Positions 3,961 through 22,829 of a stretch of 64,000 bases of DNA are shown piece after piece; the stretch's first letter is position 1, and the number at the start of each line of letters is the position of its first letter. The stretch is from an uncultured Pseudomonadota bacterium (GTDB lineage Bacteria > UBA10199 > JADFYH01). The position numbers were made by a program, and so were the translations under genes. The stretch is from positions 98,840-162,839 of the forward strand of contig CAYLKF010000002.1 of assembly GCA_964384365.1 (NCBI GenBank). The letters are read 5' to 3'. Below the pieces are notes generated by a model. That model saw nothing but the letters and a program-made list of their open reading frames with translations. It did no database searches and was not told the DNA's origin.

Positions 3961-4057
3961 TTCCGATAAATGCTGTTCCCCAGTTTGATTGGGGAATCTA
4001 AATTTTGGTTTAAAATGGATCCCAGATCAAGTCTGAGATGTGAAAATAGATATTTTT

Positions 4058-7000: not shown

Positions 7001-7060
7001 GTTGAAGCTGCTTGTGAGAAAAAGGCAGAGGCAAAAAAAGAAAAAAATTTTTTTGAGCAT
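4058..7060 (-). CDS. Large outer-membrane protein: N-terminal HExxH metallopeptidase-like domain, PD40/TolB-type beta-propeller repeats, C-terminal beta-barrel
   Basis: Signal peptide; HEFTHILH zinc-binding-like motif; repeated SPDG(T/K)(Q/S)(L/I) propeller blades; Lys-rich linker; C-terminal alternating hydrophobic beta-strands ending ...VGSSF (terminal Phe typical of OM barrels). Confidence 0.6.
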   Translation of the reverse strand: MLKKIFFFFCLCLFLTSSFNLQAAFTDPRLKWKTLKTEHFNIHFYEAEEEIALKLAPIAEQKYQVLTKKLNWKPWGRTEIVVTDQVDKANGLATILPYNYMIFFVAPPDGNSALSYYDNWLEILFTHEFTHILHMDQHGSITNPFHWIFGKLIAPNALSPKWIQEGIAVFEESQGGKGRNHSSYADMILRTDILNDQFLKVDMLSGERIEWPSGTAAYVYGGSFWQYMATTYGEEKITEFINRYGDSMWFFSLNNKARKTYDDKNFFKLWAEWKSFLQTQYQAVAQKVSAAGLTPLTPILHKKDVVKAAILSPDQTKIAYVTTGIDGPAEIRLLDLASSKDELLLRKEDSQQLSFSPDGTQLLFSIPKFHKFFYYYNDLFEVDLASKKKTRLTHGKRASDADYSPDGKSILYVGDLTGSTELFLFDRASKEARQITHSPAYTQFSNPRFSPDGKQIAVSVWINGTRDLYLYDLEGKVLAQLTNNVALENNPVWSKDSKWIYYSSDESGITNIYRIDLENKNSYRAEKLSNVLSGLFQPQLDSNGNIYAQHYFGRGYELIKFENPPSKIKDIQKTKKKNKKTKKTKIARKASTGATCPAPCVHSPLYSENNLSEKQNAAALEAPPPIDYKIQKYNPFEKLFLPRYLMPGFVFGQGGAILSLGINNADPLGRHIWSGDVTYRTDANFLGGDFLYTYNRWWTPFYVSFNDLVVNYGNIFGVGQNYYEEWRRASAGVLLPLRKHRFNLYYSFLHRDDESGLLGGFEPLLNLGNFSGFGLTYNYRSAERYPASISPEEGMRFRFTLQINDQALGSSPRNETKIAEVDVRKYTELPWADHHVLAFRFMGGVNFGDKLFQGVFRMGSDLGEGVFSEDTPLLYPLRGLPEITFSGERAMLFSTEYRLPLLLVDRGLGTGPIFLKNFYTVFFSDLGTIFNNAPNWDEFLWGVGFELRGDFTIGYGLPLTARLGYGIIVKGREFLSGLHDPITQASLKYGTLILQVGSSF

Positions 7061-7200
7061 GAAGATAATTTAAGAAAAGCCTACGGGACAAATTTTTTAA
7101 AGCTTTCGAACGTTGCGTTGTGCTTCATAAAACTAAATAGGCGATTTACCACTCGAAATCTTTTCAAAATTGTCCCGTAGGCTTATAAGAAAAGCATACA

Positions 7201-9030
7201 ATGCGCCTTAATCGCAAGAATCTAATTTTTTTATTTGGTTTTTTAGGGCTCTTTAGCATTTTTGCCCTACTTTTCTACATTTCAAACAAGATCGAGAATA
7301 TCAAAGAACCTTTAATTACTTTCTTGAAAAGCCAGATCGCTGGAAATTTAGTTATTCAAGAAGCCAAAGTTTCGTTTTTTCCTCCCGGAATCGATTTGCA
7401 AAATATTTCTGTGTTTGCCCCGGGTGAAGAAAAACCTTCTGTGACTGCCCAAAGCGGCAAGCTTCGGTTTCATTACATTCCCTGGCTTCAAGATAAAATT
7501 CAAATCACGCTCTATATTAATAAGCCCGAGGTGATTTTTTATAAACAGGCCAATGGGCAGAGTAATATGGAGCAAATTTTTGCGCCTTTGTTAAAAGGGG
7601 CAGGTCAATCTTCTTCATTTTTTTCTAAGTTTTGGCGGGGAAAATTAGAAGTAGACGGCATTCGAATTAAACAGGGAAAATTTTTAATCGAATCGCAGGG
7701 CGAAGAAACAGAGATTAAAAATATTCAGCTCAAAGCCGATCAAATTCAGTTTGAAAAAAATAAGCCCGCACAGATACAAGCTCAGTTTTTGGTGCCGCGT
7801 TGGGGATCTAAAGACTTATCACTGGAGTTCCCCCTCCTTTTAGAAAAAGAAAAAACCCTAAAGGTGGCGGCCGGAAATATTCGGTGGGATGAGCTTAAAG
7901 CCGAATTTCAAGGGCAGATTGGGCTTCCGGATTCCGATCAAAAAGATCCGAGTTTAAATATTGAATTGAAGAGCTCGCCCGATTTTAAAACCCTTGCCAG
8001 TTTGGCGGGTTTACCTCCGGGAGAGGGAAATTTAAATTTATCGGTGCATTTAAAGGGTTCGGTTTTTGCTCCAGTAATTTCCTTTGAAGTAGATTCCCCT
8101 CAATTAAAGATTAAAGAAAAAAAGCTCACCAATATAAAGCTCATGGCCCAGAAGAAAGAAGAACCCTTTGAAATTGAAAAAGCCTCCTTTCATATTTTGG
8201 GAGGAGATATTCAAAGTAGCGGCACAGTTCTTTTAAAAGCGCCTTCTGCCCAGCTCAAGGTACAAGCAAATAATTTAAGCTTAGCCGAAATTTCGGGCGA
8301 TAAAACCCAGCGGGCACGATTGAGTGCGAATCTGAATCTTGAAAATAAAAATTTGAAGAATGAATCGGGTTGGACGGGCGCGGGCGCGGTGAATTTAGGC
8401 CCTTTTCCGATTCCGGCCACCGATTTAAGCCAAAAAGTGCGAGTGGCCGAAATTTTGGCCATGGCCACCAGTCTCGATCAGAAAATTAATATTGGAATGC
8501 TTAAATCGAGTTCGAATGTGGTGGGAACTCAAATCGATCAAATCCGTGCGAACATTAATTTTGCAGGCGATACAGTGAATATTACTTCTTTTAATCTCGG
8601 AAATTCTCATTTTACGGCCTCAGGTTCTGGCACTTTGGTTCAACAAAAACGAATCAACGCTTCGGGAGTAGCGGTTTTGAGCTCGGCGGTTACGGCCGAG
8701 CTTTTTCCGGATGCTCCATTTCGAAATGCCTTAACTGAGGGCAAAGGAAGTTTCTCGGTGCCTTTTCGCGTGACTGGGAATTTACCCGATCCAGAAGTGT
8801 TGGTGGATCAAGAAGCCTTAAAACAGATTATTCATCGGGCGACTTTGCTTACCGTAAAAGATGTTTTGCTAGGCGGTGTTCGTCCTCAAAAATTAATTGA
8901 TTCGGCGATTCAAAATAGCCCCTTGGGAAAAATCTTCAAGAAACAAGATCCAAACGCGCCTCCACCCCCTCCGGCGCAAAACCCGCCGCCGCAGCGTAAT
9001 CCAATTCAAGAATTATTGTTTGGGAGATAG
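7201..9030 (+). CDS. AsmA-like membrane-anchored envelope assembly protein with Pro-rich C-terminus
   Basis: N-terminal TM anchor LIFLFGFLGLFSIFALLFYI, about 600-aa mostly soluble beta-rich body, C-terminal PPPPPAQNPPPQ. The AsmA assignment is by architecture only. Confidence 0.4.
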   Translation: MRLNRKNLIFLFGFLGLFSIFALLFYISNKIENIKEPLITFLKSQIAGNLVIQEAKVSFFPPGIDLQNISVFAPGEEKPSVTAQSGKLRFHYIPWLQDKIQITLYINKPEVIFYKQANGQSNMEQIFAPLLKGAGQSSSFFSKFWRGKLEVDGIRIKQGKFLIESQGEETEIKNIQLKADQIQFEKNKPAQIQAQFLVPRWGSKDLSLEFPLLLEKEKTLKVAAGNIRWDELKAEFQGQIGLPDSDQKDPSLNIELKSSPDFKTLASLAGLPPGEGNLNLSVHLKGSVFAPVISFEVDSPQLKIKEKKLTNIKLMAQKKEEPFEIEKASFHILGGDIQSSGTVLLKAPSAQLKVQANNLSLAEISGDKTQRARLSANLNLENKNLKNESGWTGAGAVNLGPFPIPATDLSQKVRVAEILAMATSLDQKINIGMLKSSSNVVGTQIDQIRANINFAGDTVNITSFNLGNSHFTASGSGTLVQQKRINASGVAVLSSAVTAELFPDAPFRNALTEGKGSFSVPFRVTGNLPDPEVLVDQEALKQIIHRATLLTVKDVLLGGVRPQKLIDSAIQNSPLGKIFKKQDPNAPPPPPAQNPPPQRNPIQELLFGR

Positions 9031-9034
9031 AGTA

Positions 9035-9886
9035 TCAGAAATTTTGTTGGCTCAACCACTCCACCCATTCGCTGTGTTTCTGGCCATTGCTGGCGAATGT
9101 TTTGGTGCCGTGAGAATAGGGGGCTTTGAGCTCCGAATAGTTCAGAGCTTGTCCATCCAAGCGCGTGAAAATTCCGCCCGCTTCTTCTAAGATAATTTGT
9201 GGAGCACAGGTATCCCAAAGGCTTACATCGTGATGATTAATATAAAGATCGGCATTTTTTTGAACTAAGGCCGCAACTTTGATGCCCACGCTATTGATGG
9301 GAGTGCAAATCGGCGAAGAAAATTGAGTGTTAATTTTTTCTAAGAGATCTTTTGGAAAACCTGGAGAAGTAATGAGGGGCATTTCGCTGGCTTGGGTGCG
9401 CGAAGAAACGTGAAGGGTTTTTCGAAACGGCCCCTGAATTTTTTGAGTGCCTTCGCCTTTCAAGGCAAAATAAATGCTTTTTTCGAGAGGATCGGCGACC
9501 ACGCCCAGATGCGGTATTCCGCCACGAAGAAGGCCGATCATCACACAAAAGCCCGGAATTTTTTTGGCAAAGGCTTTGGTGCCATCTAACGGATCAATCA
9601 ACCAGGTGTATTCTGATTTTTCATTTCCGATCAGTCCATTTTCTTCGGTAAGAATTGCATGGGTGGAGAAGCGTTGTAACAAGCCGTCTCTTAAGATTTG
9701 ATCGGCTTGAAGATCGGCCACGGTTACCGGGCTACTATCTTCTTTTTTTTCGGTCTTAAAATCGGTTTTTAAAATTTCGAGAATTTTTTCGCTGGCTAAT
9801 TCGGCGAGCTCAATTGCTTTTTCTAAAAGTAAGGTTTCATCGGCTAAGGTCATTAGTCTTCCTTTTTCGGAGCATGTAAACCGCAT
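9035..9886 (-). CDS. cysQ: Inositol monophosphatase family; likely 3'(2'),5'-bisphosphate nucleotidase CysQ
   Basis: WLIDPLDGTKAF metal-binding motif of the IMPase/CysQ family. Overlaps and is co-oriented with cysH. Confidence 0.65.
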   Translation of the reverse strand: MRFTCSEKGRLMTLADETLLLEKAIELAELASEKILEILKTDFKTEKKEDSSPVTVADLQADQILRDGLLQRFSTHAILTEENGLIGNEKSEYTWLIDPLDGTKAFAKKIPGFCVMIGLLRGGIPHLGVVADPLEKSIYFALKGEGTQKIQGPFRKTLHVSSRTQASEMPLITSPGFPKDLLEKINTQFSSPICTPINSVGIKVAALVQKNADLYINHHDVSLWDTCAPQIILEEAGGIFTRLDGQALNYSELKAPYSHGTKTFASNGQKHSEWVEWLSQQNF

Positions 9887-10605
9887 TCTTTATTGGCATC
9901 GGGATCTAGCGCATTAAACCAGCGCCAACGGCCAGCCCGCCTAGGCTCATTTGGGCCAATGGGTGTGGTGCATAAAATGCAACCGAGTGATTCATAATAC
10001 CAACCGTTTTGATTCCAGTTGAGCAAAGCGTGAATGGGCACTTGGTGATCTTTCGCGTATTCTCGCAGTTGTTTTTCGGTCCAGCTTACCAAAGGAGCCA
10101 CTTTCAAAATGGGGCGTTTGTCTTTGCCGTGCTCGATAATTTCAAAACGCGAGGTATTTGCCCGTGCCTTCGATTGATCGGCGCGCAGGCCCGTGAGCCA
10201 AACATCCACAGTCTCTAAAACACGCTCGTTCGGTTCGACTTTACGAAGATGGCAGCAGAATTCTTGTTTTTCTTTGCTATCAAAAAAAAGATATTCACCG
10301 TGCTCTGAAACCATCTGATTAAGCTTATGAGCATCGGGCTGGATGCGCTCGACTTTTAGATGATATTTTTTTTCGATCGCGTCGAAGAGTTCGTAAGTTT
10401 CTTTGAAAAGCCGTAGGGTATCGATCGTGAATATGCGAGGCTTAACACCCGTTGAGCAGGCCAGATCAATCATCACCGAACCGGTGAGTTGGCCACTGGT
10501 TCCAATTGCCGCTCGATTTCCGAAACGGGTAAAAATTTCCTTCATCAGATCTTTAGGGTCTGAGAATTTTTCAAGATCGGTGATGAGAGAGGGGGTAATT
10601 TGCAT
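9853..10605 (-). CDS. cysH: Adenylylsulfate/phosphoadenylylsulfate reductase (thioredoxin-dependent), APS-reductase-type cysteine pairs
   Basis: PAPS-reductase fold (AIGTSGQLTGSVMIDL, WLTGLRADQS) plus CC...CxxC cysteines (EFCCHL, LGCILC) characteristic of Fe-S APS reductases. Confidence 0.8.
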   Translation of the reverse strand: MQITPSLITDLEKFSDPKDLMKEIFTRFGNRAAIGTSGQLTGSVMIDLACSTGVKPRIFTIDTLRLFKETYELFDAIEKKYHLKVERIQPDAHKLNQMVSEHGEYLFFDSKEKQEFCCHLRKVEPNERVLETVDVWLTGLRADQSKARANTSRFEIIEHGKDKRPILKVAPLVSWTEKQLREYAKDHQVPIHALLNWNQNGWYYESLGCILCTTPIGPNEPRRAGRWRWFNALDPDANKECGLHAPKKED

Positions 10606-10610
10606 GATTT

Positions 10611-10695
10611 ACCTCCCCTCCTTACAAAGGAGGGGATTTAAGGGGAGGTCTCCAATAGGACCTCTCCCTCACCCTCTCCTTTGTAAGGAGAGGGA
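10611..10695. repeat. Tandem GC-rich palindromic hairpin repeats between cysC and cysH
   Basis: cccctcctt-acaa-aggagggg; ggaggtc..gacctc; ccctctccttt-gtaa-ggagaggg. Same family as the copies at 12872-12962, 14230-14252, 16240-16264, 41055-42305 and 59545-59625. Confidence 0.7.
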
Positions 10696-10702
10696 ATAAT
10701 AA

Positions 10703-11308
10703 TTAAATAATCCCTTTTTCCTGAAGCAAGTTTAGCACTTTTTGGGTGCTTTGTTCTAATGTTTCCTTGCCGGTTTCGAGGACGAGCTCGGGCTTATCGG
10801 GGGCTTCATAAGGAGCGGAAATGCCCGTAAATTCAGGAATCTGCCCGGCACGTGCTTTTTTGTATAAGCCTTTGGGGTCGCGGGCTTCGCATTCTTCAAC
10901 ACTCGCCGCACAATAAATTTCGAAGAATTGTCCTTCGGGTACTAATTTGCGGGCTAAATCGCGGTCTGCCTTATAAGGGGAGATGAAAGCGGTGAGAGTC
11001 ACCACATTTGACTCGCAGAAAAGTTTTGCTACTTCGCCAATGCGCCTAATATTTTCTTTTCGATCTTCGGGAGAAAATCCAAGATTTGAATTTAAGCCTT
11101 GGCGGATATTATCGCCATCGAGCACATAAGAATAGAGGCCATTTTCAACGAGGGCCAGCTCTACTTCGCGAGCGACGGTGGATTTTCCCGAAGCGGAAAG
11201 TCCGGTGAACCAGATCACTGCGCCTTGTTGCCCTAAACATTCTTGACGTTGGGCCGCGGTAAGTTTGCCATGGTGCCAGGTGAGATTTTTTGATTTGGGT
11301 TGAGTCAT
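10703..11308 (-). CDS. cysC: Adenylylsulfate kinase
   Basis: P-loop GLSASGKST and overall APS kinase length and sequence pattern. Confidence 0.85.
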   Translation of the reverse strand: MTQPKSKNLTWHHGKLTAAQRQECLGQQGAVIWFTGLSASGKSTVAREVELALVENGLYSYVLDGDNIRQGLNSNLGFSPEDRKENIRRIGEVAKLFCESNVVTLTAFISPYKADRDLARKLVPEGQFFEIYCAASVEECEARDPKGLYKKARAGQIPEFTGISAPYEAPDKPELVLETGKETLEQSTQKVLNLLQEKGII

Positions 11309-11345
11309 ATTTGCTCCTTTATTTTGAGGGCGCTGTTTAAGCCAA

Positions 11346-11930
11346 TTAAGAAGCCGGCGTCAAGGTCGTCTTCAAAAGATTTGCTTCTTCTGCCGAAAAA
11401 GGGAGTTTTAGAGCCAATAGGCGTGCTTTTTCGCTCATCTTGGCCCAAGTTTTTTGAATAATCGCGGGCATTTTTTCAGGAGGAGTTTTTTTCACAAAAT
11501 CCGAGAATTGGTATTCTAAGAAGACCAAGCAGAGGGCATCTTCCATGGTTTGGGTGTCCGGATCTTTTAAGTTTTTCTTGAGATTGATCGCTTTTACTTT
11601 TTCGATGATCTCTGAATTGTAGTTTAAACTCTTCAAAATTTTTTCGGCTTCGTCCGCATGAAATTGGTAAAGATATTTACGCCATTTTAAATACCCTATT
11701 TTTCCTTCTTCAAAATCCGTACGCGGAATCTCCCAACGTTTAAGGTGCTGACAGCGCGAGGCTAAAAGGAGGGCTTCCGAGGCTTGCGGATTCAATTTTT
11801 TCACCCATTCCGTCAGCCGCTGGGCATAAAGCAGTTCACGCGGATATTTTTTCCCCTGAACGAGTTCTAAATGGGGATCTTGTGAGTTTGCTTCATCGAA
11901 TTTTTCAAAGGCAATGCTAAGATTGGTCAT
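11346..11930 (-). CDS. Conserved hypothetical protein
   Basis: 194-aa ORF upstream of and co-oriented with the cys operon; no motif recognised. Confidence 0.45.
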   Translation of the reverse strand: MTNLSIAFEKFDEANSQDPHLELVQGKKYPRELLYAQRLTEWVKKLNPQASEALLLASRCQHLKRWEIPRTDFEEGKIGYLKWRKYLYQFHADEAEKILKSLNYNSEIIEKVKAINLKKNLKDPDTQTMEDALCLVFLEYQFSDFVKKTPPEKMPAIIQKTWAKMSEKARLLALKLPFSAEEANLLKTTLTPAS

Positions 11931-12016: not shown

Positions 12017-12595
12017 ATGAAAGTGAATGATAATTCCCTTATTTCAAAAATTCCAAACTCAATGAATGTGGCTGCTTCTCCTCCCACGCCTGCATCTACT
12101 ATAGGGTCAAAAGATTCTTACGTTTTGTCCGAACAACGTGCTGATTTTTCCGCGCGTCTTAGGCCTGCTCCTAGGCCTCATCCTCGAATTCCTCGTCCCG
12201 TACCCGCACCAACACCTGTCCCAGGTCCTTCTGAAACTCAATGTCCAGAGGGATTGCCAGCCGGGTTTTGGCACGGAGATTTGCAGGTCGATGGACAAAG
12301 TCATCCTCTGATTGTGACTGAAGTCGATATGAGGACCGCAGAAGATGTGTTGCGACAATTACAAGTTTGCGAAAGTACTCCAATGATTGCATTCCGCCAT
12401 ACAGTGTTGGGCCATTCTTATTGGCTCATTATGCCACGTTCCGAATTTCCTGTTTCTTATTCACAAATTTGCAATGGTCAAATCCACAGTATTCGATTGC
12501 TTGGAGCAGGACCAATTCTTACTTTACCCATATCAGGTGCTCAATGTCCTGCGTTATCGGCTTTTGAAGCAAGGGGAGTAGTGTTAAGAAATTAA
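12017..12595 (+). CDS. Hypothetical protein with Pro-rich N-terminal region
   Basis: 192-aa ORF; RPAPRPHPRIPRPVPAPTPVPGP low-complexity stretch, then Cys-containing C-terminal domain; no signal peptide. Confidence 0.4.
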   Translation: MKVNDNSLISKIPNSMNVAASPPTPASTIGSKDSYVLSEQRADFSARLRPAPRPHPRIPRPVPAPTPVPGPSETQCPEGLPAGFWHGDLQVDGQSHPLIVTEVDMRTAEDVLRQLQVCESTPMIAFRHTVLGHSYWLIMPRSEFPVSYSQICNGQIHSIRLLGAGPILTLPISGAQCPALSAFEARGVVLRN

Positions 12596-12639: not shown

Positions 12640-12670
12640 TTGACAAGATTAACAAAGAAATTTTATACCC
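12640..12670 (+). promoter_or_regulatory. Putative sigma70-type promoter for the riboswitch-controlled operon
   Basis: TTGACA at 12640-12645, 17-nt spacer, TTATAC -10-like element, about 15 nt before the riboswitch P1. Confidence 0.35.
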
Positions 12671-12685
12671 ATTACACAATTTGTT

Positions 12686-12794
12686 GTCTTATCCAGAGTG
12701 GGTGAGGGAATGGCCCGATGACCCCACAGCAACCGCCTGTAAAGGAAGGTGCTAAATCCATCTCTTCGACGTTGAGTTGAAGGGGAAGATAAGG
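12686..12794 (+). promoter_or_regulatory. SAM-I (S-box) riboswitch aptamer
   Basis: cttatccAGAGtGGgtGAGGGAatGGCCCGATGAcCCCacaGCAACC...GGTGCTAAaTCC...gataag matches the conserved S-box core, with P1 closing pair cttatc/gataag. Confidence 0.75.
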
Positions 12795-12798
12795 AGAA

Positions 12799-12861
12799 AA
12801 CCTCTTCTTGTTCTACGGAGATTCTGGAAAGAAATCTTCGGAATAAGAAGAGGTTTTTTTT
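12799..12861 (+). terminator. Riboswitch expression-platform intrinsic terminator (attenuator)
   Basis: Long imperfect hairpin aacctcttcttgttctacggagattc...gaaatcttcggaataagaagaggtt followed by a T9 tract. Confidence 0.7.
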
Positions 12862-12871
12862 TACCATTATC

Positions 12872-12962
12872 TCCTCCTCTTAAGATTAAGAGGAGGTTGG
12901 GAGGAGTTGTGATCAATGAGTTTTCACAACTCCCCCTGACCCCCTCTTGATCTCAAGAGGGG
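12872..12962. repeat. Three palindromic hairpin repeats in the leader between the riboswitch terminator and the ThrC-like start codon
   Basis: cctcctctt-aagatt-aagaggagg; ggagttgtga..tcacaactcc; ccccctctt-gatc-tcaagaggggg. The last overlaps the RBS. Confidence 0.7.
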
Positions 12963-12984
12963 GAAGTAAAAGGAAAAAGTATTT

Positions 12985-14217
12985 ATGACACTGGTTAAAG
13001 GTTTAAAATGTCGGGAATGTGGCCACGGTTATCCAGTCACTCCTACCCATGTGTGTGAGTTTTGCTTTGGTCCGCTTGAAGTCGATTATAATTACGATGA
13101 AATCAAGAATGCTATTTCTCGGGAGAAAATTCTCTCTCGCCCCAAAACCATGTGGCGTTATAAAGAACTGCTTCCCATTGATCAAGAGCCGACGGTAGGC
13201 CGCTTAGCGGGCTTTACTCCTTTAGTGAAGGCCGATCGCTTGGCCAAGGCTTTGGGGGTGCAAGAACTTTATATTAAAAACGATGCGGTCTGTTACCCCA
13301 CCCTTTCTTTTAAAGATCGGGTGGTTTCAGTCGCACTTTCGAAAGCGAAGGAGTTCGGTTTTAAGGTAGTGGCTTGCGCCTCTACAGGTAATCTTGCAAA
13401 TTCTGTGGCGGCCAATGCAGCCAGTGCGGGCTTAGAAAGCTATGTATTTATTCCCCATGATTTAGAAGCGGGTAAGGTTTTAGGAACTCTCGTGTTTGGC
13501 TCCCACGTGGTGGGTATTCGGGGTACTTACGATGAAGTGAATCGCCTCTGCAGTGAAATTGCCGCCAAATATAAATGGGCGTTTGTGAATATTAACGTTC
13601 GACCTTTCTATGCCGAAGGTTCGAAGAGCTTATTTTTTGAAGTGATTGAGCAATTGGGTTGGAAAGTGCCCAAACATGTGGTGGTGCCGATGGCGAGTGG
13701 TTCTTTGCTTACGAAGGTGCACAAAGCCATTAAAGAATTTCAAAAAGTAGGTTTGATTGACTCCAGCGAGTGTAAAATCTATGGTGCCCAGGCTACCGGT
13801 TGCTCGCCCATTGCAACGGCTTTAAAAAGTGGATGGGATTTGTTTAAACCGGTTCGCCCGAATACAATCGCGAAATCTTTAGCGATCGGAAATCCGGCTG
13901 ATGGGTTTTATGCCATGCTCTCGATGAAAGAGACTGGCGGCTGGAGCGAAGATGTGTCGGATGATGAAATAGTTGACGCCATTAAACTTTTAGCTTCGAC
14001 TGAAGGGATCTTTACCGAAACCGCGGGTGGAGTCACTTTAGGGGTGACTAAAAAATTGATTGAACAAGGGAAAATCCCTAAAAATGAGTCTATCGTGATT
14101 TGCATTACCGGTAACGGACTTAAAACCCAAGAAGCGATTGCCGATAAAGTGGGTAAGACGACGATCATTAATGCCAAGCTTGCAGATTTCGATGCGGTTG
14201 TAGAAACGATGAAATAG
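12985..14217 (+). CDS. Threonine-synthase-family PLP enzyme with N-terminal zinc ribbon; candidate homocysteine-forming MetM-like enzyme
   Basis: N-terminal CxxC..CxxC ribbon (CRECGH...CEFC), fold-type II PLP lysine motif SFKDR, 410 aa. Sits behind a SAM riboswitch next to sulfur-carrier genes, so probably not a housekeeping thrC. Confidence 0.75.
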   Translation: MTLVKGLKCRECGHGYPVTPTHVCEFCFGPLEVDYNYDEIKNAISREKILSRPKTMWRYKELLPIDQEPTVGRLAGFTPLVKADRLAKALGVQELYIKNDAVCYPTLSFKDRVVSVALSKAKEFGFKVVACASTGNLANSVAANAASAGLESYVFIPHDLEAGKVLGTLVFGSHVVGIRGTYDEVNRLCSEIAAKYKWAFVNINVRPFYAEGSKSLFFEVIEQLGWKVPKHVVVPMASGSLLTKVHKAIKEFQKVGLIDSSECKIYGAQATGCSPIATALKSGWDLFKPVRPNTIAKSLAIGNPADGFYAMLSMKETGGWSEDVSDDEIVDAIKLLASTEGIFTETAGGVTLGVTKKLIEQGKIPKNESIVICITGNGLKTQEAIADKVGKTTIINAKLADFDAVVETMK

Positions 14218-14229
14218 ACCTCACCCCAA

Positions 14230-14252
14230 CCCTCTCTTTTGTAAGGAGAGGG
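14230..14252. repeat. Palindromic hairpin repeat
   Basis: ccctctcttt-tgta-aggagaggg, preceded by cctcacccc as in the 10611-10695 copy. Confidence 0.6.
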
Positions 14253-14270
14253 AGATTAGAAGGAGATAAA

Positions 14271-14522
14271 ATGTCTCACAACATTCGACGAAAAGTTTAT
14301 TTAACCTTTCCGGCTACCAAAACCAAAGAAGCGATTATTTGCGATATGTACGATAAATATAAAGTACGATTTAACATTCGCAATTCTTCGGTGACTCAAG
14401 AAGTTGGGATCATTGCACTAGAACTCGAAGCGCCGGAAGATAAGATGAATGAAGCGCTCAAATATTTTGAAAGTCGGGGCGTTTTAGTGGAGCCGGTGGA
14501 GATGGATGTTATAGCGGGTTAA
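14271..14522 (+). CDS. Small conserved protein (ACT/NIL-like ferredoxin-fold domain?)
   Basis: 83-aa ORF with good RBS (aggagat), alternating beta-alpha pattern; function uncertain. Confidence 0.4.
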   Translation: MSHNIRRKVYLTFPATKTKEAIICDMYDKYKVRFNIRNSSVTQEVGIIALELEAPEDKMNEALKYFESRGVLVEPVEMDVIAG

Positions 14523-14533
14523 TCCTCTTACAT

Positions 14534-15412
14534 ATGCAAAAAACAATTCTCGATCATATTGGCAATACGCCCCTTTACCAAGTGAGGATGTTTGAAAAAG
14601 AATTTCCGAAAGTAAAAATTTTCGCGAAGCTCGAATTCAATAATCCCGGTGGTTCGGTAAAAGATCGTCCGGCTGCGCGTATGGTTTTAGAAGGAATCAA
14701 GCGGGGCGACTTGAAACCAGGAAAAATCATCATGGATCCGACCAGCGGAAACACGGGCATTGCTCTTGCAATGATTGGTGCGGCGCTCGGTTATCCGGTC
14801 GAATTGGTAGTGCCTAAAAACGTGAGCCCGCGGCGTAAGGCCGTTGCTCAAAGTTTTGGGGCGAAGCTTACTTTTTCATCCGAGATGGAAGGCTCCGATG
14901 GTGCCATTCGCTTGGCGCAAAAACTCAAAAAAGAAAACTCTGAAAAATATTTTTGCCCCGATCAATATAATAATCCGTTGAATCCTCAAGCGCATGCCGA
15001 AACCACGGCCGTTGAAATCTGGAAACAAACCGATGGGAAAGTTACTCATTTTGTAACGGGGATCGGAACGAGCGGAACTCTAATGGGCACTTCGCGGGGT
15101 TTAAAAGGGTTCAATCCAAAAATTCAAACCTATGCGGTGGAGCCCGCCGATGCGCTCCATGGCTTAGAAGGTTTGAAGCATATGCCCAGCTCCATAGTGC
15201 CCGGAATTTATAAACGCGAAACGGTCGACGGGCTTTTTTCGATTCCCACCGAGCCTGCGTGGGAAGTTTGCGAGCGTTTGGCAAAAGAAGAGGGTATTTT
15301 AGTGGGCCATTCTTCGGGCGCTAATTTATTGGGGGCCGTTGAAGTTGCAAAACAAATTCAAGAAGGAATTGTGGTGACTGTTTTTTGTGATTCTGGGGAA
15401 AGATATTTATGA
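14534..15412 (+). CDS. cysM: Cysteine synthase family (CysM/CysK-like O-phosphoserine/O-acetylserine sulfhydrylase)
   Basis: PLP-lysine motif GGSVKDRPA, Gly-rich PLP loop GIGTSGT. 292 aa. Confidence 0.85.
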   Translation: MQKTILDHIGNTPLYQVRMFEKEFPKVKIFAKLEFNNPGGSVKDRPAARMVLEGIKRGDLKPGKIIMDPTSGNTGIALAMIGAALGYPVELVVPKNVSPRRKAVAQSFGAKLTFSSEMEGSDGAIRLAQKLKKENSEKYFCPDQYNNPLNPQAHAETTAVEIWKQTDGKVTHFVTGIGTSGTLMGTSRGLKGFNPKIQTYAVEPADALHGLEGLKHMPSSIVPGIYKRETVDGLFSIPTEPAWEVCERLAKEEGILVGHSSGANLLGAVEVAKQIQEGIVVTVFCDSGERYL

Positions 15413-15873
15413 TTCAAATTTCGGAGTACGTTTTAAAACAAATTTGTCTGCATGCCGAACGCGAATATCCCAATGAAGCTTGCGGAATGATTATTGGCCC
15501 CGAGCATAAAGAAAACGCGATTGGAGTTTTTCCGATTCGCAATATTCAAGAGGAGTTGCATCAGAAAGATCCTCAAAAATATCCGCGTACTGCCAAAACC
15601 GCTTATTATATGGATCCTGGCCAATTAAAAATCGTGGAAAAAGAAGCGAAGAGTAAAAACTTCGATACCAAAGTGATTTATCATTCGCACCCCGATCATG
15701 AAGTTTATTTTTCAGATGAAGATAAATTAATGGCTGCCCCTTGGGGAGAACCCAATCATCCGGGAGTTTCTTGGATTGTCATTTCAGTTCAGAATGGAAG
15801 AGCTCAGGCCGCCAGTGAATTTTTTTGGGAAGAAGAAAAAAAAGAATATGTGGAGAAGAAATTAAAAATTTGA
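15409..15873 (+). CDS. JAMM/MPN+ metalloprotease (Mec+/CysO-hydrolase-like)
   Basis: JAMM motif YHSHPDHEVYFSDED (HxHx7Sx2D) plus upstream Glu; 4-nt overlap with cysM. Confidence 0.8.
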   Translation: MIQISEYVLKQICLHAEREYPNEACGMIIGPEHKENAIGVFPIRNIQEELHQKDPQKYPRTAKTAYYMDPGQLKIVEKEAKSKNFDTKVIYHSHPDHEVYFSDEDKLMAAPWGEPNHPGVSWIVISVQNGRAQAASEFFWEEEKKEYVEKKLKI

Positions 15874-15917
15874 ATGCTTCGACAAGATCGCCGTGCCCAA
15901 TCGGGGCATCTTAAGGC

Positions 15918-16223
15918 TTGTTGGAGAATGAAAAGGAGAACCTTATGTCAATCAAAGTGAGAATCCCCACCCCCTTACAAAAACTCACTCAAAATCAATC
16001 GGAAGTATCGGTGGAGGCCAAAACTGTTCGTGAAGTGATTCAAAATCTCGAAAAAAACTTTCCGGGAATCCAAGAACGTTTGTGTGATGAAAAAGGAAGT
16101 TTACGACGCTTCGTGAATTTTTATGTGAACGAAGAAGATATTCGTTTTCTTCAAGGAGATGCGACTGCTCTTAAAGCAGGGGATGAAGTGTCTATCGTTC
16201 CTGCGATAGCTGGGGGGAAATAG
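15918..16223 (+). CDS. ThiS/MoaD/CysO-type sulfur-carrier protein
   Basis: About 100-aa beta-grasp-like protein ending ...PAIAGGK. A Gly-Gly plus one residue suits JAMM trimming to expose the GG thiocarboxylate terminus. Confidence 0.7.
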
Positions 16224-16239
16224 TCACAACTCCTCCCCA

Positions 16240-16264
16240 CCTCCTCTTAATCTTAAGAGGAAGG
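16240..16264. repeat. Palindromic hairpin repeat
   Basis: cctcctctt-aatctt-aagaggaagg, preceded by tcacaactcctcccc (compare 12925-12940). Confidence 0.6.
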
Positions 16265-16266
16265 AT

Positions 16267-17448
16267 GTGCAGCGTTGTGAAGTTTTCATGCTTAACCCCG
16301 CACTACTCAAGCTTGAGCTCATTGCGTATGGAATTCATACCGAAGGCGAGGTTCCGCGGCCTTTGGCGAATCCGTTTGGCTTGGTTCATCTTGTTTTGCC
16401 CGAGACTACTGCAGTGAGTGTGCACGAAGTGAAAAGCGAAACGCCTTTTACTCTTTTTAAGAAAAAAGATCGGTTTTATTTAAGAGATAGCCGAAATAAA
16501 AAAGAGATTTCGATTTCGTGGACGCCCCCGCTTCAGAGTTATCAGAAAAAAACTTCTTCTGGGGTTTTGGTTTCCGATATTTTAACTGTTCACGGAGGCT
16601 ATATCGCCGTGCATCCTAAAGGGGCCTGCCGATTTGGAATGAGCGGACTCTCCTGCCGTTACTGCGGTTCTACGCGTGAGCTTTATAAGCATCCTCCCTT
16701 TACGAAAAAAGATCTCATCGAAGCTGTTGAAATTGTCTTGAAAGAAAAGAAATGTGAATTTTTGAATTTTTCATCGGGTCGTGTCGAAACCGAAGATGGC
16801 GGAGTACTCTGGCTTAAACCTTGGGTTGAAGAGATTCGACGTCACTTAGATCTTTTGATTTCACTCGATTTAGTTCCGCCCAAAACCAATGATTGGATTG
16901 ATCAAACTTATGCCATGGGAGTTGATGCGCTTTATTATGATCTCGATTTTTTTAACCCATTAGAAATGGAATCGACCCGGCAATTTCATCTTCAAGAAGA
17001 ACGGCACCTAGAAGCTTTAGCTTATGCCGCCAAGATTTTTCCGAAAGGCGCTGTGCTTTCGCACGTGGTGGTGGGCTTGGAGCCGGTGAAAGAAACCAAA
17101 AAAAAGGTTGATCTTTTATTGCAGCGCGGGGTGGTGCCGGTGCTGGCGTATTTTCCACCCGATTCAACTTCCGATTTAGTAAAAGTTTGGAAAGTAGAAC
17201 CCAAAGAACTCACTTCACTTTATGCGCATCTCTTTGAAGGCTTAGCCAAAACCAAAAACACTCCACATTGGGTGCAACAGCAAGATGTGGTGCTCACTCC
17301 TCTCGAAGGGCGATTTTTTTCCATTCGCTCGCCGGGTCTGCATCTCGCTCTAAAAGAATTTTATCAAACTTCTTTTGGAAGGGGCTTGAGAAGAAGCTTG
17401 GTAGGGGTGCGGCGAAAGTTCAAAAATCCCGCTAAAAATAAGAATTAG
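16267..17448 (+). CDS. Hypothetical protein with Cys-x8-Cys-x2-Cys motif (possible Fe-S/radical-SAM-like), last gene of the riboswitch operon
   Basis: GACRFGMSGLSCRYCGS motif; 393 aa; no canonical CX3CX2C. The start may be the downstream Met (MLNPALL). Confidence 0.5.
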   Translation: MQRCEVFMLNPALLKLELIAYGIHTEGEVPRPLANPFGLVHLVLPETTAVSVHEVKSETPFTLFKKKDRFYLRDSRNKKEISISWTPPLQSYQKKTSSGVLVSDILTVHGGYIAVHPKGACRFGMSGLSCRYCGSTRELYKHPPFTKKDLIEAVEIVLKEKKCEFLNFSSGRVETEDGGVLWLKPWVEEIRRHLDLLISLDLVPPKTNDWIDQTYAMGVDALYYDLDFFNPLEMESTRQFHLQEERHLEALAYAAKIFPKGAVLSHVVVGLEPVKETKKKVDLLLQRGVVPVLAYFPPDSTSDLVKVWKVEPKELTSLYAHLFEGLAKTKNTPHWVQQQDVVLTPLEGRFFSIRSPGLHLALKEFYQTSFGRGLRRSLVGVRRKFKNPAKNKN

Positions 17449-19529: not shown

Positions 19530-21203
19530 ATGAAGAAATGGTTAAAAACGGAGTTGAAAATCATGAATACCACTCAAGCGCTTGAAGCAGCGAAAAAGCT
19601 TCTCAATCATGTTGGAAAACACTTGGCTCAAAAAGCCTCCGATGGAAAAGATATTTCTACCGCGAAGCTCGATACCTTTCAAAATGTAGCCTACGATTTG
19701 GCCTGGATCGCTTCTGAAGTATATGCAGCCGGCGAATTGATCGCGTATGCCGAAAAAAATTCAGGAGAAGTTGAAAAAGCTTTGGCTGAAATTTTTACGG
19801 CAGAAATGGTGAGCAATTTTTCCAATAAAGTGAGCTATCGCTTTCACGATTTTGGGGTTGATCAAAACATTCTTCACGAAACAATCTGGAAACCCGAAGT
19901 GACCAAAGATATTGAAACCGCCCTCAGTTCACAAAACTATTCTCGCGTGGCAAAACTGGTGCACGATCAAGGCGCTGGCACCTATGGTTTGGATGAAAAC
20001 CATTCGATGTTTCGCGAAAGCTTCAAAAAATTTGCCGAAGATGTGGTGATGCCCTTGGCTGAAAAGGTGCATCGTCACGATGATTTAATTCCGGCTCAAA
20101 TTATGGATGGCTTAAAAGAAATGGGCTGTTTCGGGCTCTCGATTCCCCAAAAGTTTGGGGGCTTTCAAGATGATGCCAAGCCCGATAATACTGGAATGTG
20201 CGTGGTCACCGAAGAGCTTTCTCGCGGAGGCTTAGGAATTGCGGGCTCACTCATTACTCGCCCCGAAATTTTATCGAAGGCGATTTTAAAAGGAGGAACC
20301 GAAGAACAAAAAGCAAAGTGGCTTCCGTTACTCGCCACGGGTGAAAAAATGGCTGCGGTTGCCGTTACCGAACCCGATTTTGGTTCAGACGTTGCCGGTA
20401 TGAAAGTGACTGCCAAGCCGCAAGAGCACAATGGCAAAAAAGGTTATGTAATTAATGGCGTGAAGACTTGGTGCACCTTTGCGGGTTATGCCGATACCTT
20501 GATGGTATTGTGCCGAACAAATCCGGATATGAGTTTGAAACACAAAGGGATGTCGATTCTCATCGCTGAAAAACCAAGTTTCGATGGCCATGAATTTAAA
20601 TACGATCAACCTGAAGGTGGGCACATCGAAGGAAAAGCGATTGCCACCATTGGTTACCGGGGCATGCATTCGTATGAAGTTGCCTTTGAAAATTATTGGG
20701 TGCCTGAAGAAAATCTGGTGGGTGGAGAAGCCGGGCTTGGAAAAGGTTTCTATCTTCAGATGGAAGGGTTCGCCGGTGGACGTTTGCAAACTGCCGCTCG
20801 CGCGATTGGTGTGATGCAAGCGGCACTTGAAGCCGCCGTTCGTTATTCGAATGAGCGAAAAGTTTTTGCTAAACCCATTTTCGAATATGGCATGACTCAA
20901 TATAAAATTGCCCGCATGGCGGCCCTTATTCAAGCGTGCCGTCAAGCCACTTACCATGCCTGCCAACTCATGGATGAACATAAAGGCGCCATGGAAGCCT
21001 CTCTGGTGAAATTCTACGCCTCCAAAGTGAGCGAATGGGTAACCCGAGAAGCGCTTCAAATTCATGGGGGCTACGGTTATGCCGAAGAGTATGCGGTGAG
21101 CCGCTATTTTGTGGATGCCCGCGTGTTTTCGATTTTTGAAGGGGCGGAGGAAGTTTTAGCCCTTCGCGTGATTGCGCCCGCCTTGTTGAAGCAGTATCTT
21201 TAA
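19530..21203 (+). CDS. Acyl-CoA dehydrogenase (long N-terminal extension form)
   Basis: ACAD middle and C-terminal domains (GSDVAGMKVTA, YRFFVDARVFSIFEGAEEV). The likely true start is ATG at 19563 behind ggagttgaaaatc. Confidence 0.85.
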   Translation: MKKWLKTELKIMNTTQALEAAKKLLNHVGKHLAQKASDGKDISTAKLDTFQNVAYDLAWIASEVYAAGELIAYAEKNSGEVEKALAEIFTAEMVSNFSNKVSYRFHDFGVDQNILHETIWKPEVTKDIETALSSQNYSRVAKLVHDQGAGTYGLDENHSMFRESFKKFAEDVVMPLAEKVHRHDDLIPAQIMDGLKEMGCFGLSIPQKFGGFQDDAKPDNTGMCVVTEELSRGGLGIAGSLITRPEILSKAILKGGTEEQKAKWLPLLATGEKMAAVAVTEPDFGSDVAGMKVTAKPQEHNGKKGYVINGVKTWCTFAGYADTLMVLCRTNPDMSLKHKGMSILIAEKPSFDGHEFKYDQPEGGHIEGKAIATIGYRGMHSYEVAFENYWVPEENLVGGEAGLGKGFYLQMEGFAGGRLQTAARAIGVMQAALEAAVRYSNERKVFAKPIFEYGMTQYKIARMAALIQACRQATYHACQLMDEHKGAMEASLVKFYASKVSEWVTREALQIHGGYGYAEEYAVSRYFVDARVFSIFEGAEEVLALRVIAPALLKQYL

Positions 21204-21230
21204 AGTATAGTAGCCCAAGATCAGTAGTGA

Positions 21231-22412
21231 TTGATTCAGAAAGGCTTAAATATGTCTCCAAAAATTCCTTACCCTAAATTCATTGAAAAAGCGCCTGGAA
21301 TGGCCGCCAATTTAAATCAGGTGAAAAAACTTGAATACGGCCGCGTTTTAGAAGATCTCGACGAAGGTGAAGTGTTTTGTCATCCTCGCGGAATCACCAT
21401 TACCAAGGCCTTTGCCATCGATTTCGCGACCACTTTCATGGAAACAAATCCGCTTTACTTAAATGAAGTCTACGCGAAAGCCCATGGTTTTAAAGATCTC
21501 GTTGTTTCCCCGCTCATGGTCATGAATATTGCGCTCTCCCTCGGAGTTCAAAACGATTCCGAAAAGGCTGTGGCCAATTTGGGTTATTATAATGTGTGTT
21601 TTGTGAAGCCGACTTATCCAGGAGACACCCTTCGCGCGATGACCAAAGTTTTAAAGCGCGAGATGAAAGAGGGGGGTAAACCGGGCATTGCCACGATTCG
21701 CACCATTGCTCTCAATCAAAATGAGGAGCTTGTGCTTCAATACGATCGAAAAATCATGGTGGCGCCAGCGGGTAAGAAAACAGAGGCGTCCACAATTGCG
21801 AATCAGCCTTTCCCGGAAATGGCAGAACTCAGCATGGAGTTGCCGAATTTCCCCAAATCGTTTCCTAAAAATTTAACCGGTGTTCGTACCTATTTTGAAG
21901 ATTTCAAAGTGGGCGATATTTTAGTGCATGCCAACGGCCGCACCATTACCGATGAGCACTATGCCTGGACTTATAAAGTAATGAATACGCATCCGCTTCA
22001 TTACGATCGTTTGTATTCCACTGCCCGGACGGGTGCCATGAGTGGTGAGCCCATTGTGTATGGAGGGCTTGTTTTTGCTTGGTTGGCTGGTCTCGCGAGT
22101 AGAGATACAACGGAGAATGCGCTAATCGATTTCGGTTACACCGAAGGTTATCACACTCAACCTGCCGTGAGTGGCGATACCGTGGGCGCGATTTCTCGGG
22201 TACTCTCCGTAGAAGAAGGCCCTGACGGAATCCCTGCCGGCATCGTCACCTTTCAACTCATTGGCGTGAAAAATATCCGTGCTGCTCAAGCGCTTGAAAA
22301 GTTTGGCGCAGATTTGTTCATTAAAGAAAATGATAAAAAGAAATTGGGTAAAGAAAAAATTCCCGAGAAAATTTTTGAGATTGAACGAAGAATCCTGATT
22401 AAAAAGAGATAA
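21231..22412 (+). CDS. Tandem-hotdog MaoC-like (R)-specific enoyl-CoA hydratase/dehydratase
   Basis: Two MaoC/hotdog halves in one 393-aa protein; adjacent to the ACAD. Confidence 0.7.
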
Positions 22413-22415
22413 TCT

Positions 22416-22829
22416 TTAACTAATCTCTTTTGAACTTATCATAAAAGAACCCGAACCATTCGCGATCAATCGCGAATCTTTGGAATACACTTCCATTTGG
22501 CAAACGATCAGGCGTTTTTCTAAGCGTACGAGATGCCCAATTGCTTTTAGATCTTGAGTGAGTGCCCCTTCTAAGATTCGAATATTGAGATCGGAGGTGA
22601 CCACCCATTTCCCCGCGTGGGCGGCGGCGGTAAACCAACCGGCATTATCTAGCAAGGTGGCGATGATTCCTCCGTGCACATCCCCCATCCCATGATTGAA
22701 TTTCTCTTGATAAGGCATATCGAAAATGGCCTCTGTTTTTTCGTTATAAGAGAGGATCATGCCCGTTGAAGCTTGGATGGGCGCCCGATTAAAGAGGGCA
22801 ACTAATTTTTTGCAAGTTTCTTGACTCAT
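22416..22829 (-). CDS. PaaI/YbgC-type hotdog thioesterase
   Basis: HGGIIATLLDNAGWF active-site region of the PaaI family. Confidence 0.75.
   Translation of the reverse strand: MSQETCKKLVALFNRAPIQASTGMILSYNEKTEAIFDMPYQEKFNHGMGDVHGGIIATLLDNAGWFTAAAHAGKWVVTSDLNIRILEGALTQDLKAIGHLVRLEKRLIVCQMEVYSKDSRLIANGSGSFMISSKEIS

Follow-up and report, generated by a model that had tools for sequence, protein, structure and literature searches.

Background

The presence of a threonine-synthase homologue at the head of an operon governed by an S-adenosylmethionine (SAM) riboswitch raises the question of which product the enzyme supplies, because riboswitches of this kind regulate the supply of methionine and SAM. 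Such an operon lies in a 64,000-nucleotide stretch of contig CAYLKF010000002.1 (assembly GCA_964384365.1, positions 98,840 to 162,839 of the forward strand) from an uncultured Pseudomonadota bacterium, the whole of which is referred to here as the window. In the operon, a SAM-I (S-box) riboswitch precedes six genes encoding a ThrC-like enzyme that uses pyridoxal phosphate (PLP), a small protein consisting of a NIL domain, a CysM-like sulfhydrylase, a JAMM metallopeptidase, a sulfur carrier of the ThiS/CysO type and a protein with an unusual cysteine motif. An earlier reading of the DNA (the original prediction) had described these genes as co-directional and tightly packed, and six closely spaced open reading frames (ORFs) on the + strand were found downstream of the riboswitch at the places that it gave.

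A route to homocysteine that involves a homologue of threonine synthase was described in Streptomyces albulus in 2024, and a preprint on pathway annotation (10.1101/2024.10.14.618325) lists its components as the carrier MetO, the peptidase Mec, the activating enzyme (E1) MoeZ and the synthase MetM. The same GapMind preprint reports that MetM is routinely misannotated as threonine synthase, and a second source (PMC12172450) places a SAM riboswitch upstream of S. albulus metM.

The analysis described here makes it likely that the operon in the window is a SAM-repressed unit which passes reduced sulfur to homocysteine, and probably also to cysteine, by way of a protein thiocarboxylate. The evidence for this reading is set out first, followed by the proposed sequence of reactions, the sixth gene, the observations that weigh against the reading and the rival explanations to which they lead.

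The riboswitch and its expression platform

The aptamer matches the Rfam family RF00162 over the complete model (positions 1-108 of 108) with a score of 84.0 bits against a gathering threshold of 44.4 (E 2.2e-18), and it is the sole Rfam match in a scan of all 64 kb; this bears out the S-box aptamer that the original prediction had called at 12686-12794. The terminator or T9 attenuator predicted with it was also recovered, as a hairpin with 17-nt arms that runs directly into nine T residues. The arms of this hairpin (inverted repeat I2) are 94% complementary, and folding of 12796-12866 gives a free energy of -33.2 kcal/mol. The hairpin was found by folding and by an inverted-repeat search, since its loop is too long for the promoter and terminator scan. 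The same scan omits the promoter-like site at 12640-12669, which is a consensus match only and whose last base is not T.

Folding of growing transcripts predicts a switchable expression platform, in which the terminator and an antiterminator that uses the 3' strand of the aptamer helix P1 are mutually exclusive. The predicted antiterminator helix is seen when the leader is folded to 12815 only, that is, when the 3' strand of the terminator is not yet present. This pair of structures fits an OFF switch in the classical S-box arrangement: at low levels of SAM, the 5' side of the terminator would be paired with the 3' strand of P1 and transcription would continue into the operon, while binding of SAM would lock P1, prevent formation of the antiterminator and allow the long terminator with its T9 tract to stop transcription before the first gene. 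A SAM-I aptamer, as detected with a covariance model built for this analysis (R1), heads 25 of the 29 related operons for which upstream DNA is available, and a hairpin with a T-run follows 18 of 26 aptamers (that of the window and 17 of the 25 others), the aptamer of Nonomuraea described below being without a T-run.

The ThrC-like protein as a MetM candidate

The ThrC-like protein was analysed in a tree and alignment of 50 MetM-like sequences, among them that of Nonomuraea, together with five ThrCs of solved structure (Aquifex, Thermus, Bacillus, M. tuberculosis and Arabidopsis). These MetM-like proteins form a monophyletic clade apart from the five ThrCs, and the window protein, which falls within that clade and not with the solved ThrCs, has 52.9% identity to the Nonomuraea protein but only 32-37.5% to the ThrCs. 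The Nonomuraea protein is informative because of its context: in Nonomuraea gerenzanensis, which was reached by a tblastn search of a plasmid collection, the order is SAM-I riboswitch (68.7 bits), ThrC homologue with the ribbon, and 91-aa carrier with the ending AVAGG, and this layout is the published actinomycete metM-metO arrangement.

The clade also differs from ThrC in four motifs, having STGNL where ThrC has STGNT, N(I/V)NxRP(Y/F)Y(A/T)EG(S/A)K where ThrC has N-SVNPxR(I/L)EGQKT, P(M/T/V)A(S/G)G(S/T) where ThrC has PVGNAGN, and AIGNPADG where ThrC has RIGNPASW. The window protein itself carries STGNL, NINVRPFYAEGSKS and PMASGSL in place of the ThrC active-site loops STGNT, SVNPxR.EGQKT and PVGNAGN, and the replacement of these otherwise conserved loops extends across the whole clade. 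The first three loops of ThrC presumably hold the substrate phosphate that steers the enzyme to threonine, as in the T. thermophilus structures.

The separate clade, the replaced motifs, the riboswitch and the invariant neighbouring carrier together support the assignment of the ThrC-like protein as a candidate homocysteine synthase of the MetM type. The proposal that it is MetM-like rather than a threonine synthase, for which the original prediction had suggested a phylogeny against bona fide ThrC, is thus upheld by clade membership, by four non-ThrC motifs and by synteny with Nonomuraea.

The Nonomuraea sequence (NZ_LT559118.1, locus L010) is an 11.85-Mb chromosome which is filed as a plasmid in PLSDB and is almost unannotated; its MetM-like locus lies at 11.81 Mb.

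The carrier and the JAMM peptidase

The carrier gene most likely starts at ATG 15945 and not at TTG 15918, because AAGGAG lies 6 nt upstream of this ATG and the homologues have 92 aa. The best match of the carrier in the PDB is CysO of M. tuberculosis (3dwg_C, E 4.9e-22), to which it aligns from end to end, and its tblastn identity to the Nonomuraea carrier is 50%. The C-terminus reads VPAIAGGK, and because of the extra lysine after Gly-Gly the carrier would need trimming. Between one and three residues stand beyond the Gly-Gly in 36 of the 49 carriers of related loci, as would be expected if these were trimmed off by the JAMM peptidase, whose motif HSHPDHEVYFSDED (HxHx7Sx2D) is intact in the translation. 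The suggestion that the sulfhydrylase, peptidase and carrier mirror the mycobacterial CysM-CysO-Mec system therefore holds for the carrier, with CysO as its best match, and for the peptidase with its HxHx7Sx2D motif, but may not extend to the substrate of the sulfhydrylase, which is closer to enterobacterial CysM than to any other solved sulfhydrylase.

Conservation across relatives and the question of the E1

The order of the six genes is the same for close homologues (73-92% identity) in metagenomic contigs and metagenome-assembled genomes (MAGs), where they are often followed by genes for an anion symporter of the DASS/SLC13 type and for ATP sulfurylase. A scan with a profile of the sixth protein, a variant radical-SAM protein (rSAM) described below, in which one genome per species was used, yielded 63 loci. 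All of these come from uncultivated organisms, with the labels Pseudomonadota/Deltaproteobacteria, Terriglobia/Acidobacteriota, Binatia, Myxococcota, Thermodesulfobacteriota, Nitrospirota, Nitrospinae and Actinomycetes. The genes for MetM, carrier, CysM and NIL are found together in MAGs labelled Binatia, Myxococcota, Thermodesulfobacteriota, Nitrospirota, Acidobacteriota and others.

The recurrent layout runs from the SAM-I riboswitch through an optional ThiF-type E1, MetM, carrier, CysM, NIL and an optional second ThiF-like gene, which is often short and degenerate, to rSAM, DASS and ATP sulfurylase; in some lineages the cluster also contains genes for a JAMM peptidase, CysK or a small sulfite reductase. 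The carrier gene is upstream of the rSAM gene in 36 of 45 loci, a DASS gene lies at most 500 nt downstream of it in 48 of the 54 loci with enough sequence, and in 21 of 49 no more than 150 nt separate its start from the end of a ThiF-like gene. Unbiased clustering of the neighbouring ORFs was noisy in high-GC loci, where shadow ORFs occur, and was useful only for the ThiF and sulfite-reductase genes.

In the clade of the window, the JAMM gene lies inside the operon and the locus has no E1, and the transporter and ATP sulfurylase genes are absent from this window; in relatives outside the clade, the cluster includes a single ThiF gene or a pair of them. The original prediction had noted that the operon lacks an E1, and this extends to the entire 64 kb, in which no gene of the ThiF/MoeB/MoeZ type was found by a motif scan, by Pfam analysis of 46 ORFs or by tblastn searches seeded with ThiF proteins of related loci. 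An unlinked E1 is normal for the MetM/MetO route, since MoeZ is listed there as a separate step.

In L054 (9411-9953), L063 (9447-9989) and other Binatia loci, a ThiF-like protein of about 180 aa is encoded directly upstream of rSAM. Only its first 50 or so residues are recognizable as ThiF and it has no obvious nucleotide-binding glycine loop, while a full-length ThiF heads the same operon; the short protein may be a degenerate, non-catalytic remnant of an E1. In two Thermodesulfobacteriota loci (L022 and L027, about 3700-10000), the interval between JAMM and rSAM contains genes which by eye resemble DsrE, TusA, GcvH and lipoate ligase, together with two more radical-SAM genes, a set that resembles the genes for maturation of lipoate-binding proteins in sulfur-oxidizing Hdr-like systems.

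The proposed pathway

The pathway combines features that were computed directly (the riboswitch, the assignment of the genes to families, the clade and motifs of the ThrC-like protein, and conserved synteny) with substrates, thiocarboxylate chemistry and an E1 encoded elsewhere in the genome, all of which we infer. The carrier would be made with its extra C-terminal lysine, which the JAMM peptidase would remove in order to expose the Gly-Gly end. An E1 of the ThiF/MoeZ type from elsewhere in the genome would adenylate this end, which would then be converted to a thiocarboxylate, the sulfur being derived from sulfate through activation by the enzymes of the divergent operon cysC-cysH-cysQ. The MetM-type enzyme would use the carrier thiocarboxylate to displace the phosphate of O-phosphohomoserine and yield homocysteine, and the CysM-like enzyme would carry out the equivalent reaction on an activated serine to yield cysteine. 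A further role of the JAMM peptidase, suggested by Mec, would be to free any adduct of carrier and amino acid. The NIL protein and the rSAM protein appear, from their conservation in related loci, to be accessories of the pathway.

The sixth gene

The protein that the original prediction called a "Cys-motif protein" can now be described more closely as a protein of the radical-SAM fold with a variant CX8CX2C motif. Its matches to the Radical_SAM family (22.7 bits) and to the NCBIfam model "variant_rSAM" (113.6 bits) are both under threshold. In an alignment of 16 homologues with 42-92% identity, the sole invariant cysteines are C121, C130 and C133, which form CX8CX2C with an aromatic residue before the last cysteine; the canonical CX3CX2C of the radical SAM superfamily is not present, whereas the partial TIM-barrel fold of the superfamily is found together with the profile match. 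Variants like CX8CX2C have been catalogued as uncharacterized clusters of the superfamily (PMC9477430). Comparison with PDB folds returns a generic rSAM core with lipoyl synthase as its nearest relative. The protein differs from lipoyl synthase (LipA/LIAS) and other sulfur-inserting rSAM enzymes in that the identity is 11-18%, the motif is CX8CX2C and not CX3CX2C, and auxiliary-cluster cysteines are lacking; additional parts are a beta-rich N-terminal domain of some 110 residues and a C-terminal helix of basic character.

When 1.8 billion representative proteins were searched, 88 relatives of the rSAM protein were found at E<=1e-30. They include natural fusions, one with an N-terminal JAMM peptidase (P0252) and two with a C-terminal DASS/SLC13 transporter (P0288 and P0335). 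JGI calls many unfused members of 385-390 aa "sodium-dependent dicarboxylate transporter", a label probably taken over in error from the transporter fusions.

Two simple roles for the protein can be rejected. The original prediction had allowed that the sixth gene might itself handle activation of the carrier; the protein has no adenylation domain and keeps the same length and architecture with or without an adjacent ThiF gene, and because it stands beside E1s in 21 of 49 loci it accompanies these enzymes and does not replace them. Replacement of a sulfite reductase is excluded by seven related loci that carry both a small sulfite-reductase gene and rSAM.

A role at the delivery of sulfur is suggested by what is known of related clusters, in which E1s without a rhodanese domain are always accompanied by a relay protein of the SirA type (Iyer et al. 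2006, PMC1779556). The ThiF proteins of the rSAM loci also lack a rhodanese domain, SirA is not found here, and rSAM is always present, in loci that were collected with the rSAM profile. This combination favours a role for rSAM at the delivery of sulfur to the activated carrier, and by analogy with rhodanese or SirA we tentatively suggest, with low confidence, that it may be an iron-sulfur (Fe-S) enzyme which relays imported or activated sulfur to the carrier. A stronger version of this idea, in which rSAM and the NIL protein would be an obligatory and hitherto unrecognized membrane-proximal Fe-S component that supplies the adenylated carrier with sulfur of imported sulfate or thiosulfate, in place of the rhodanese/SirA relay on which all characterized thiocarboxylate systems depend, is speculative and on balance improbable, but it would, if true, represent a new type of reaction for the radical-SAM fold.

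Evidence against the pathway and rival explanations

Several observations weigh against the pathway proposed above. The ThrC-like protein scores 283.3 bits with the threonine-synthase equivalog TIGR00260, well over the cut-off of 167.1, and the "MetM" to which it is anchored is the Nonomuraea orthologue, which is defined by its context and is not S. albulus MetM itself. A true CysK stands at the head of the operon in some relatives, and the CysM-like enzyme of the window most resembles, by sequence, the enterobacterial CysM that uses sulfide or thiosulfate. The alignment of 16 rSAM homologues contains no set of auxiliary-cluster cysteines of the kind found in sulfur-inserting rSAM enzymes. The pathway cannot be completed from the genes of this window, since the 64 kb yielded neither an E1 nor a sulfite reductase, ATP sulfurylase, sulfate transporter, homoserine kinase or housekeeping thrC. 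Finally, Terriglobia loci have the order rSAM-DASS-TPR-CysQ with no carrier genes nearby, which argues for a role of rSAM tied to anion uptake and not to the carrier.

This last observation supports the main rival explanation, according to which rSAM is chiefly part of a module for anion uptake with DASS, ATP sulfurylase and CysQ, where it would process or gate imports, and its adjacency to the carrier reflects only the larger supra-operon. A parallel may be drawn with the thiosulfate importer YeeE, which works with a cytosolic partner, YeeD. The close spacing of the DASS gene downstream of rSAM, often with overlapping stop and start codons, is in keeping with such a module, as are the two rSAM-DASS fusions, the Terriglobia loci in which rSAM-DASS-TPR-CysQ is all that remains, and the presence of a CysM-like enzyme of the enterobacterial, thiosulfate-capable type. 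Against the module stand the rSAM genes with no adjacent DASS gene (in the window and in L013, L055, L060 and L061), the JAMM-rSAM fusion and the ThiF-like gene placed directly upstream of rSAM in two-fifths of the loci (the 21 of 49 given above), and we know of no chemistry that links a radical-SAM enzyme to sulfate or thiosulfate. This explanation is accordingly considered possible but unlikely.

The second rival concerns the cysteine branch alone. The carrier might serve homocysteine synthesis only. The CysM-like enzyme would then make cysteine from free sulfide or thiosulfate, or would act on homocysteine and derivatives of serine. TIGR01138 cysM is the best NCBIfam model for this enzyme although its score of 353 bits is under the cut-off of 394; its best PDB matches are the CysMs of Salmonella and E. 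coli (232 bits), and M. tuberculosis CysM entries are absent from the best 60 PDB matches. Residues R210-R211 of E. coli CysM align with K215-H216 of the CysM-like protein. Since its closest solved kin is enterobacterial CysM, the enzyme may not use the carrier at all, and its use of the thiocarboxylate is argued only by adjacency to the carrier. This adjacency is nevertheless found in most loci, the stop of the CysM-like gene overlaps the start of the JAMM gene in the window, and operons that combine ThiS, JAB and cysteine-synthase genes are a recognized class (PMC1779556), so a purely homocysteine-directed carrier is regarded as rather doubtful.

The third rival, a true or bifunctional threonine synthase in a sulfur operon with homocysteine made elsewhere, can draw on the TIGR00260 score, on the retained PLP lysine motif SFKDR and on a related cyanobacterial protein with threonine synthase and deaminase activity in vitro (PMC12172450), but it is highly improbable in view of the SAM-I control, the separate clade, the fixed place beside a CysO-type carrier in dozens of species and the replaced motifs at what are presumably the substrate-phosphate positions of ThrC.

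The NIL protein

The protein of 83 aa that had been described as ACT/NIL-like is assigned to the Pfam family NIL with 47.8 bits, and its gene is conserved in the cluster of related loci. No relative of it among solved structures is detectable by sequence. NIL domains are otherwise found in the methionine importer MetN and in the methanogen NIL-ferredoxin that is needed for homocysteine synthesis. The domain is thus shared with proteins tied to methionine or homocysteine metabolism, but the NIL protein of the window stands alone, with no ATPase or ferredoxin, and in some species the domain is instead a C-terminal extension of the carrier. In the latter case (L030 8439-8948, L034 8167-8676 and L043 7627-8136) carrier and NIL form one ORF, joined immediately after the Gly-Gly (…IIPAIAGG-APIKKKIY…). 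Fused MoaD-MoaE must be cleaved in order to work, and by analogy the carrier-NIL ORF would be a cleavable precursor. Whether free or fused, the NIL protein could be a partner of the carrier or of the enzymes which binds methionine or homocysteine, a suggestion made with low confidence.

Comparison with known systems

A close likeness is to the MetM/MetO system of S. albulus (Hasebe et al. 2024, Appl Environ Microbiol 90:e01247-24, via PMC12172450 and 10.1101/2024.10.14.618325). Shared features are a SAM riboswitch, a ThrC homologue followed by a carrier ending in GG, and a need for a JAMM peptidase of the Mec type and for the unlinked E1 MoeZ. The operon of the window adds the CysM-like enzyme, the JAMM gene itself, the NIL protein and the CX8CX2C rSAM, and its carrier has the extra lysine; its host is an uncultivated Gram-negative-type lineage and not an actinomycete.

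With the CysM-CysO-Mec system of M. tuberculosis the operon shares a carrier closely homologous to CysO and an adjoining JAMM peptidase and PLP sulfhydrylase of type II; its E1 would likewise be unlinked. It differs in that the sulfhydrylase is nearer to enterobacterial CysM, in that control is exerted by a SAM riboswitch, and in that the carrier apparently also serves the MetM-type enzyme.

In the HcyS-HcyD-HcyF-MetY methionine pathway of Wolinella succinogenes (Krishnamoorthy and Begley 2011), the carrier extension is reportedly trimmed by a JAMM peptidase. This system and the class 4e operons (PMC1779556) resemble the present one in the carrier extension, which the JAMM peptidase of the window is predicted to trim, in the clustering with sulfate-assimilation genes and in the lack of a rhodanese domain in the E1s, which here are those of relatives. 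The putative homocysteine synthase of the window is, however, a ThrC homologue and not an O-acetylhomoserine sulfhydrylase: no MetY-type PLP enzyme of the Cys/Met-metabolism family (fold type I) is present in the operon, both of whose PLP enzymes are PALP members by Pfam. The window also lacks a SirA/TusA protein, and the variant rSAM occupies the invariant accessory position.

Features of the window and neighbouring genes

The positions of the features are collected in Table 1.

Table 1. Features of the riboswitch-controlled operon, its leader and the divergent operon, in window coordinates.
Feature	Position	Strand	Basis or remark
Promoter-like site	TTGACA 12640-12645, 18-nt spacer, TATACC 12664-12669	+	Read from sequence, consensus match only
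SAM-I aptamer	12686..12795	+	Rfam RF00162, full-length
Predicted antiterminator helix, 10 bp	12788..12812	+	P1 3' strand pairs with terminator 5' strand
Intrinsic terminator	12797..12862	+	17-nt arms 12797-12813 / 12841-12857, T9 at 12854-12862
Nested palindromic element, 113 nt	12863..12975	+	Between terminator and ribosome-binding site; inverted repeats I1, I3, I4
MetM-like homocysteine synthase candidate, 410 aa	12985..14217	+	PALP 222 bits, TIGR00260 283 bits, N-terminal Cys4 zinc ribbon
Stand-alone NIL-domain protein, 83 aa	14271..14522	+	Pfam NIL 47.8 bits against 24
CysM-like O-acyl/phospho-serine sulfhydrylase, 292 aa	14534..15412	+	PALP 234.7 bits, TIGR01138 cysM best NCBIfam model
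JAMM/Mec-like metallopeptidase, 154 aa	15409..15873	+	Prok-JAB 73.9 bits; overlaps cysM-like gene by 4 nt
CysO/MetO-type sulfur carrier, 92 aa, ends AIAGG-K	15945..16223	+	ThiS family 67.3 bits
Inverted 38-nt copy of part of leader palindrome, 97%	16224..16261		Carrier-rSAM spacer; blastn
Variant radical-SAM-fold protein, 393 aa, CX8CX2C	16267..17448	+	Alternative start ATG 16288 matches homologues
Divergent sulfate-activation operon	9035..11930	-	Pfam
DUF4202	11346-11930	-	First gene of divergent operon
cysC APS (adenosine 5'-phosphosulfate) kinase	10703-11308	-	Pfam
cysH PAPS (3'-phospho-APS) reductase	9853-10605	-	Pfam
cysQ-like phosphatase	9035-9886	-	Pfam

The palindromic element that follows the terminator is strongly folded (-65.6 kcal/mol with its 3' flank, 12863-12990). 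A 38-nt piece of it is repeated in the spacer between carrier and rSAM, and occurs also in the cysH-cysC spacer of relative L012 (4616-4660 and 4771-4802). Since this piece recurs in other spacers, the palindrome looks like a small intergenic repeat of the REP (repetitive extragenic palindrome) kind, specific to this lineage, and not like a part of the switch.

The cysC-cysH-cysQ operon that had been noted upstream on the other strand was also identified by Pfam, with DUF4202 as an additional first gene, and the same set occupies the same position in L001, L012 and L013. The leading place of DUF4202 in the window and in these three relatives suggests that this family is tied to sulfate activation, a link which has so far not been recognized. 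Between DUF4202 and the promoter-like site of the riboswitch lies an ORF for a proline-rich protein of 192 aa (12017-12595, + strand) with no Pfam match, where the close relative L001 has a DCC1-like gene.

Elsewhere in the window there are two genes of the methylmalonyl-CoA-mutase family (27053-29008 and 56744-58402), one with a fused B12-binding domain, and genes for an acyl-CoA dehydrogenase, a MaoC/mesaconyl-CoA-hydratase-like protein and a thioesterase at 19530-22829. The acyl-CoA genes belong to ordinary acyl-CoA metabolism and are unrelated to the sulfur operon.

Conclusions

The SAM-I switch, a homocysteine branch of the MetM/MetO type, a carrier and peptidase of the CysO/Mec type and a CysM-like enzyme are each already known. 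What appears to be undescribed, in the literature that was searched, is a supra-operon spanning several phyla in which both branches and the uptake of sulfate come under a single riboswitch, and the conservation in it of the NIL protein and the CX8CX2C rSAM as apparent accessories. If the pathway proposed here is correct, a riboswitch-controlled version of the MetM/MetO route would be widespread in uncultivated soil and groundwater lineages, represented by the window and some 60 relatives, and would be merged there with a CysO-type cysteine branch and with the uptake and activation of sulfate into a single SAM-controlled module.

The reading also bears on annotation, because the genes concerned are labelled as threonine synthase, hypothetical protein or even dicarboxylate transporter, and tools that search for pathway gaps are affected as well. 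It further singles out two proteins whose roles can be tested: the NIL protein, which is sometimes a putatively cleavable extension of the carrier, and the rSAM protein, which fusions link both to the JAMM peptidase and to an anion transporter, and which would be a concrete candidate for the delivery of sulfur to carriers whose E1 has no rhodanese domain.

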